In this document: one piece after another, positions 5,730 through 6,383 of the stretch
Layout of the letters: each line of letters opens with the position of its first letter
Position numbering within the stretch: the stretch's first letter is position 1
Source: Escherichia phage SholemSchwarzbard
Sequence record: PP925840.1
Direction: 5' to 3' (one strand)
DNA: 64,000 nt
Program-made: the position numbers and the translations under genes
Notes under the pieces: model-generated
What the model saw: only the letters and a program-made list of their open reading frames with translations
Told to the model about the DNA's origin: nothing
Databases searched by the model: none

Positions 5730-5861
5730 TTATATATTGTTAATTTGATTTAGAATTCTTTTTGCTTGAGTATGACTTACGCCAATATGCTTAGCATATT
5801 TAGATAATTCACCACGCTTAGAAAAATCATATAATTTAGAAATTTCTATTCTTCTTTTCTT
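5730..5861 (-). other. out-of-frame C-terminal helix-turn-helix segment of the seg-like endonuclease (-1 frame relative to 5846..6337)
   Basis: Translation KKRRIEISKLYDFSKRGELSKYAKHIGVSHTQAKRILNQINNI* is HTH-like; that frame opens only 5 codons before the stop of the catalytic ORF, inside an A-rich tract. Confidence 0.5.
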
Positions 5862-6337
5862 TCATCCGCAGAAACTTTTGCTTCGTTTGCTTTTGCTATT
5901 TTACGTTTAGCTTCTTGAGAATGAGTTTTACCAGCAAAGCCATTCTTCATTAATCCATTTGAAGACCATCCTTTTAATTTTCCGTTAGAATGTGCCTTTT
6001 TAACACCCAATGAAATTAATTCGCGTTGCTGATTTGTCATAGGATAATTATTTATATGGTCCCATCCACCTTCACCTCCAAGTTTTAAATTATACACATC
6101 TGGTCTATTTAAAAACTCTTCTGTGACAATATTTTTCTCGGCTTCAAGCATAGATTCTTTATCATCAAAATACTCTAATATTTCTTTAGAAAAATTTTCT
6201 ATACCATATTTATCTTGGGCTCTTTTTAATAATTTACCAGAACCCATATATCCATCATCTAAATTTTCGGTAGAATGCACACCAATATAAATTTTATTAT
6301 TAATTTTATTTGTTATTTTATAAAGATAAAAATGCAT
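5846..6337 (-). CDS. GIY-YIG homing endonuclease catalytic domain (seg-like), inside the tRNA cluster
   Basis: Motif YLYKITNKINNKIYIGVHS...GYMGSGKLL; preferred start ATG at 6335-6337 with AGGGA SD (the 6379 start abuts tRNA-Gly). Confidence 0.75.
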   Translation of the reverse strand: MHFYLYKITNKINNKIYIGVHSTENLDDGYMGSGKLLKRAQDKYGIENFSKEILEYFDDKESMLEAEKNIVTEEFLNRPDVYNLKLGGEGGWDHINNYPMTNQQRELISLGVKKAHSNGKLKGWSSNGLMKNGFAGKTHSQEAKRKIAKANEAKVSADERKEE

Positions 6338-6383
6338 ATCAGTCCCTAATAAAGAACTGAGCGTCTCACGACGAGTCATAAAT

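Follow-up and report, generated by a model that had tools for sequence, protein, structure and literature searches.

The gene lodged in the tRNA cluster of Escherichia phage SholemSchwarzbard (PP925840.1) raises a simple question. Why does a reading frame for the catalytic part of a GIY-YIG homing endonuclease end where it does, when a helix-turn-helix (HTH) segment lies just beyond its stop codon in another frame? Has the gene been inactivated, has a base been lost from the sequence record, or do ribosomes change frame on the message? These three readings were offered in an earlier note made from the letters of the DNA alone, which thought programmed frameshifting the less likely; the first two still stand, and the third does not. 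A gene that 55 related records carry intact appears here in a frameshifted SegB-like form, either an ordinary broken version of it or the product of a one-base sequencing error. The analysis covers a stretch of 64,000 nucleotides of the phage sequence, called here the window.

The locus and its reading frames

The window has about 96-98% identity to many Tequatrovirus (T4-like) records and is identical to none (megablast). Its minus strand carries ten tRNA genes between 5029 and 6623, in the order Gln, Leu, Gly, Ser, Thr, Met(CAU), Tyr, Asn, His and Arg, with the endonuclease reading frame set between Gly and Ser. This insertion slot is flanked upstream by tRNA-Gly (UCC; 6384-6457, minus strand) and downstream by tRNA-Ser (UGA; 5634-5723, minus strand). 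In T4 and T2L it is tRNA-Pro that stands between Gly and Ser instead of the endonuclease gene, and for T4 the earlier note was right on this point. The content of the cluster differs even between very close relatives, since tRNA-His and a 114-nt spacer, found between tRNA-Asn and tRNA-Arg at 5109-5298 of the window, are both missing from RB51, where Arg comes after Asn.

The mechanically called open reading frame runs on the minus strand from ATG 6379 to 5846, encodes 177 aa and carries the GIY-YIG motif FYLYKITNKINNKIYIGVH. Translation confirms that it stops within an A-rich tract, ending ...SADERKEE* at TAG 5848-5846 within GAAAGAAAAGAAGAATAG, where the codons are GAA AGA AAA GAA GAA TAG. 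The -1 frame has a TGA at 5864-5862; from there 43 sense codons, KKRRIEISKLYDFSKRGELSKYAKHIGVSHTQAKRILNQINNI, run up to a stop, TAA 5732-5730. This out-of-frame C-terminal tail, the HTH subdomain (5730-5861, minus strand), therefore opens five codons ahead of the 0-frame TAG, as had been claimed. The likely true start is not ATG 6379 but ATG 6337-6335 (MHFYLYK, M15 of the long form), because most aligned homologues, T4 and T6 SegB, and the RB51 and teqdroes annotations begin there, and because a hairpin with a Shine-Dalgarno-like AGGGA lies directly upstream. The frame that results (5846-6337, minus strand) encodes a product of 163 aa with the catalytic domain, a linker and a NUMOD3-like helix.

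At the other end of the gene, TATAAATA at 5727-5734 (minus strand) equals the T4 late-promoter consensus, overlapping the TAA of the tail and lying directly upstream of tRNA-Ser; it may be a chance occurrence in AT-rich DNA.

A known type of endonuclease gene

What kind of gene is this? The truncated reading frame matches the homing endonuclease family phrog_314 (E=2.8e-53) and scores 27 bits against Pfam GIY-YIG PF01541, above the cut-off of 22.6, with NUMOD3 falling just below its own cut-off (19.3 against 20.4 bits). The catalytic residues Y20, Y31, G33, E81 and N97 are invariant in 23 homologues. [quoted passage not shown] Structures of I-TevI are available for its catalytic domain (1MK0/1LN0) and its DNA-binding domain (1I3J). 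The locus is thus a free-standing SegB-like GIY-YIG homing endonuclease gene, a type already known.

The biochemistry of this type comes from its better-studied members. T6 SegB is a nuclease for which Y17 and G19 are essential (PMC13096335), and the YIG residues of the window gene are the equivalents of these. Removal of the 28 C-terminal residues of T6 SegB, whose C-terminal domain is of a different type, abolishes toxicity (PMC13096335). T4 SegB cleaves tRNA genes in their T-psi-C region and promotes its own inheritance (PMC2330249). The T4/T6 SegB type is the only one for which site-specific cleavage and preferential inheritance in mixed infections have been demonstrated (PMC2330249, PMC13096335). 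The distribution of the gene is sporadic, the full gene occurring in about 55 records as against 1,081 that match the tRNA region, and T4, T2L and T6 are without it at the tRNA-Gly/tRNA-Ser slot. Seg-type GIY-YIG enzymes have a C-terminal DNA-binding domain in frame with the catalytic part, which is the arrangement in 55 of 55 relatives and not in the window. With the HTH conserved in the DNA but placed in the -1 frame, the window copy, as recorded, is a pseudogene of a GIY-YIG family member.

One base lost from a conserved frame

The window reads GAAAGAAAAG where all 55 related Tequatrovirus records read GAAAGAAAAAG. In an alignment with Shigella phage ESH35, teqdroes and RB51 the whole difference is a single gap, GAAAG-AAAAG in the window against GAAAGAAAAAG; in the alignment with KMB23 the gap falls at 5855, and KMB23, RB18 and CrRp10 have the same run length of five. 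The site of the one-base deletion is thus the A4 run at 5855-5858 on the minus strand (four T on the plus strand), which is A5 in the relatives. The loss of an A from this run (now 5858-5855) puts the HTH tail out of frame, such that the stop comes 39 codons earlier than in the in-frame A5 alleles. The earlier note had expected a one-base change to restore a frame of about 205 aa, and this is what is found: with one A inserted the frame reads through ...ADERKRRIEISKLYDF... to the TAA and encodes 202 aa if ATG 6337 is the start, 216 aa if it is ATG 6379.

The intact state is the only one seen elsewhere. A 67-nt query centred on the run matches 55 phage records over spans of 66-68 nt, in each case exceeding the aligned query by one base; none of the 55 is identical to the A4 query. 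The restored protein aligns as one unbroken tblastn piece in each of the 55 records. Neither truncated product, of 177 aa or of 163 aa, has an exact match among some 15 billion collected proteins, and the intact protein forms the 55-member cluster P0001, with names such as 'SegD', 'SegB-like' and 'homing endonuclease'. Exact-pattern scans for the A4 and A5 alleles found neither in IMG/VR, the JGI metagenomes or the GTDB genomes, which is silent on the frequency of A4 since the gene itself is not in those collections.

Apart from the lesion the gene has hardly changed. The intact alleles of RB51, RB18, AR1 and HY01 share 98-99.7% DNA identity with it, occupy the same tRNA-Gly/tRNA-Ser slot and are all in frame (A5). 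Besides the frameshift, the sole difference from the closest copy, that of HY01 (99.7% identity), is D/N at 6034, a nonsynonymous change in the endonuclease linker (minus-strand codon AAT, MTNQQ against MTDQQ in the aligned relatives). Within the tail no substitution sets the window apart from ESH35, teqdroes and RB51 in the alignment.

The tail as part of the enzyme

The significance of the lesion depends on whether the tail belongs to the enzyme, and an absence of the HTH-like segment from seg homologues would have spoken against the proposal of the earlier note; the segment is present in the direct homologues. The 43-aa tail alone matches phrog_16521 (E=2.3e-7) and aligns with the C-terminal end of the gene in relatives, where it is in frame. 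All of 23 full-length homologues, at 41-78% identity, end in ...G.L.K.A...GVSHTQ.RR..., and across them the tail residues R177, G190 and T204 are invariant and K194, Q205 and R208 nearly so. Queried alone, the C-terminal domain gave no match in a large protein index in which the full-length query did find matches.

The AlphaFold2 model of P0001 has a mean pLDDT of 79 and places helices at 171-181, 191-199 and 203-215, with 10-residue block means of 90-94 over residues 171-210. In this model the frameshift falls at residues 175/176, within the first of the three C-terminal helices. The C-terminus of P0001 has weak Foldseek matches to small HTH domains (DeoR, homeodomain, sigma region 4).

An intact homologue is also found in another genus. 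Klebsiella phage KP13MC5-5 (Jiaodavirus, OP617748.1, 1546-2154) encodes, directly after tRNA-Gly, an unbroken protein of 202 aa with 77% identity. In that phage tRNA-Pro follows, its start overlapped by the 3' end of the gene by about 10 nt, and no CDS is annotated for the gene in the record. The intact state of this homologue, the invariant HTH residues and the confident three-helix model together argue, at the level of sequence conservation and predicted fold, that the tail belongs integrally to the protein and is under selection.

Reading across the two frames

Could the two frames nonetheless be used together? In a leaky or programmed -1 ribosomal frameshift the P-site tRNA-Lys would slip from AAA 5857-5855 to AAA 5858-5856, supplying a small dose of the full-length protein alongside the truncated enzyme. 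On reading the codons the slip re-pairs perfectly and regenerates the ancestral ...ERKRRIEISK... exactly, and the short overlap, with the -1 frame open for just five codons before the stop, suits it as well. However, the site is no X_XXY_YYZ heptamer; there is only A_AAA_G, which allows no more than the slip of a single tRNA on A_AAA. For the 78 nt downstream the MFE is -13 kcal/mol (z=-0.72), a value reached by 40 of 200 shuffles, and no Shine-Dalgarno-like stimulator is seen by eye upstream. The two-frame layout, moreover, occurs in 0 of the 55 relatives and 0 of the 23 more distant homologues, all of which are single-frame. A run of A4 is too short for transcriptional slippage. A ribosomal slip of this kind is therefore very unlikely at this locus, and programmed frameshifting is effectively excluded. 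A related proposal, to which we attach even less weight, is that the A4 allele is attenuated and not dead: slippage of tRNA-Lys on A_AAA_G (5858-5855) would yield a trace of full-length nuclease with an excess of HTH-less catalytic fragment, and this lowering of dosage might be selected, given the toxicity of SegB-type enzymes and their cutting of the genome that encodes them. Least credible of all is a split enzyme, in which the catalytic and HTH parts would act together as two polypeptides. Both halves are intact as reading frames, but the tail frame has no ATG, GTG or TTG between its TGA and TAA and no ribosome-binding site, the open reading frame listing has no entry for it, and no homologue is organised in this way. 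With no in-frame start codon the tail cannot be translated on its own.

Mutation or sequencing error

There remains the choice between a phage that has lost the base and a record that has. For the latter the phage would truly be A5 and encode an intact 202-aa endonuclease, with one A dropped from the consensus. What separates A4 from A5 is one base in the length of the run, and a run of four or five A is a classic site for homopolymer error. Any sequencing platform could leave one error in 64 kb, the presence of the A4 allele in no other record or protein collection fits an error equally well, and the lack of further decay in the tail is equally expected of one. Against this, the assembly has no other sign of homopolymer error. 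This was examined by a leave-one-out comparison of runs with identical 12-nt flanks in the window, KMB23, RB18 and CrRp10. Among 1,825 informative runs the window has one unique length change, which is the seg A4. Elsewhere KMB23 has two, RB18 one and CrRp10 one, all four of them intergenic according to the CDS tables. One unique change in 1,825 is the same rate as in the three other, independent genomes, and the assembly is thus without an excess of such errors.

The position of the lesion carries the argument further. The window holds 368 runs of at least 5 bases, yet when 151 KMB23 open reading frames were mapped onto the 64 kb, no real gene other than seg turned out to be divided between two frames. 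Compared with KMB23 over about 60 kb, the seg lesion is also the only one-base indel inside a conserved coding region, the other one-base indels being intergenic. A random error would far more often have fallen in an essential gene; the sole anomaly lies in one of the few dispensable genes, a selfish one amounting to about 1% of the window, where a frameshift is tolerated, and this favours a real mutation. The lack of any window-specific substitution in the out-of-frame tail would make such a mutation very recent. We therefore consider it probable, with moderate confidence, that the deletion is a real and recent inactivating mutation of the homing endonuclease gene by replication slippage, and we regard a sequencing or assembly artefact as possible, if doubtful.

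Two other candidate signs of sequence error were set aside. A second 'split ORF' at 47333-47591 is a spurious plus-strand reading frame lying over minus-strand genes and a TA-repeat indel. The run at 43240 (C5 against C4), considered as a sign of homopolymer sequencing errors, follows a terminator hairpin and also varies among KMB23, RB18 and CrRp10; it was not flagged by the leave-one-out test.

The comparison with KMB23 brought out further differences. A segment of 130 nt in the tail sheath gene (window 33456-33585) aligns twice to KMB23 33630-33886, where the record splits the sheath into two CDS; whether a duplication or an assembly fault, the problem belongs to KMB23 and not to the window. 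Near 10326 the window has two fewer copies of the 10-nt repeat ATTCAATTCC than KMB23, upstream of the gene 3 homologue by coordinate mapping, and near 9377 there is an in-frame 12-nt difference placed in the homologue of gene 1 (dNMP kinase).

The leader hairpin

The endonuclease cassette begins with a leader (6338-6383, minus strand) that starts directly after the 3' end of tRNA-Gly. Within it a 9-bp hairpin at 6360-6339 (minus strand), TCAGTTCTT-TATT-AGGGACTGA, buries the Shine-Dalgarno-like AGGGA directly upstream of ATG 6337, with an MFE of -14.1 kcal/mol (z=-2.57). The homologue in the Klebsiella phage retains the hairpin through pair-preserving changes, and the leader of T6 segB, which follows tRNA-Tyr, equals that of the window save for one G/A difference. 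T4 segB has a different, stronger hairpin over its Shine-Dalgarno sequence and AUG (z=-6.4). Translational repression of T4 homing endonuclease genes is known, and hairpins that bury the Shine-Dalgarno sequence fit with it.

Is the 46-nt leader instead a remnant of the 5' half of tRNA-Pro? The idea was prompted by GCTCAGTT and TTxGGGA, which are common to the leader and T4 tRNA-Pro, and was rejected because the same leader stands ahead of T6 segB after tRNA-Tyr and ahead of the homologue in the Klebsiella phage, which has an intact tRNA-Pro downstream of the gene. A hairpin masking the ribosome-binding site accounts for the leader better.

Proposed mechanism and meaning

By analogy with I-TevI and SegB, the intact 202-aa protein would begin with the catalytic domain, continue through a linker that includes a NUMOD3-type helix, and end in a three-helix HTH whose role is to place the enzyme on its target DNA. 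In a mixed infection, if the analogy holds, the intact enzyme would cut genomes that are without the gene, and in the course of repair the cut genomes would acquire the gene together with the tRNA genes beside it. With A5 changed to A4, translation in the window ends ...ADERKEE at TAG 5848-5846, leaving a 163-aa product without the whole HTH, and such an enzyme would no longer be expected to bind or cut its target efficiently. Through loss of the HTH the gene would be a selfish element in early decay, either dead or crippled.

For annotation, the locus is best entered as a SegB-like homing endonuclease pseudogene with a frameshift, or marked as a possible homopolymer error, and neither as two hypothetical reading frames nor as a recoding site. 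If the mutation is real, it captures cleanly how a selfish endonuclease gene takes the first step in its cycle of invasion and decay, and it also offers a natural HTH-less allele that would be useful for assessing the contribution of the C-terminal subdomain.

Comparison with SegB, I-TevI and related systems

How does the gene relate to the endonucleases already described? The seg and tRNA arrangements were compared in T4, T2L, T6, RB51, the window and the Klebsiella phage. T4 and T6 SegB and the window gene are alike in being free-standing, in lying within the tRNA cluster, in starting after the 3' end of a tRNA and in having a hairpin over the ribosome-binding site. The slots differ, the window gene lying between tRNA-Gly and tRNA-Ser, T4 segB between tRNA-Ile and tRNA-Arg, and T6 segB between tRNA-Tyr and tRNA-Arg. 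With T4 SegB the window protein has 84% identity over 117 aa (BLASTP), being essentially identical over the first 95 or so and unrelated beyond; T4 segB has the same catalytic module with a different leader. The T6 gene (AP018814.1, 2540-2990) shares with window 6049-6383 (minus strand) both the leader and about 340 nt of the catalytic module at about 99% DNA identity, and this common stretch begins directly after the CCA end of the upstream tRNA. In both comparisons DNA identity breaks off abruptly after the WDH(I/V)N codons, and unrelated DNA-binding domains follow. The alignment to T4 SegB that had been suggested does not show the tail, the T4 C-terminus being unrelated and only the N-terminal catalytic domain common to the two.

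Since the homology with T4 SegB is not full-length and the slot is not the one upstream of tRNA-Arg, the window gene is, by its sequence relationships, a domain-swapped SegB-like chimera and not an orthologue of T4 SegB. A recent domain swap in the linker looks like the origin of the difference between it and T6 segB. Its C-terminal domain being unrelated to that of SegB, the target specificity presumably differs. The intact alleles go by several names: RB51 ORF142 is a 'truncated SegB-like protein', the AR1 and HY01 copies are 'SegD' (UniRef D4Z9T6_BPAR1), and the annotators of RB18 had already marked their copy 'segB (C-terminus divergent)'. In the window gene and in T6 segB one leader and catalytic module is joined to unrelated DNA-binding domains in different tRNA slots, a clear example of domain shuffling that bears on the retargeting of SegB-type enzymes within tRNA clusters.

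I-TevI, from the td gene of T4, has the same two-domain plan of GIY-YIG catalytic domain, flexible linker, NUMOD3-type helix and C-terminal HTH, and an I-TevI-like plan of two domains has been described (PMC2330249). I-TevI is intron-encoded whereas the window gene is free-standing, sequence similarity between them is limited to the catalytic domain (E=0.011), and no zinc finger was detected in the window gene.

With respect to decay, two further systems are relevant. The defunct I-TevIII of T4 is an example of a degenerate homing endonuclease gene in a T4-like phage (PMC2790892). The trna.1 gene of T2L (AJ880101.1, 584-985), between tRNA-Ser and tRNA-Met, has a protein of the same NUMOD3 and HTH type (33% identity, phrog_16521 E=3.6e-44) without a GIY-YIG domain, and looks like an endonuclease remnant or a module with a different N-terminus. 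Like the window gene, I-TevIII and, it seems, trna.1 are selfish endonuclease genes that remain in place although some of their coding capacity is gone; trna.1 likewise lies within the tRNA cluster. The window lesion is unlike either in being a single base, so recent that nothing else in the gene has decayed.
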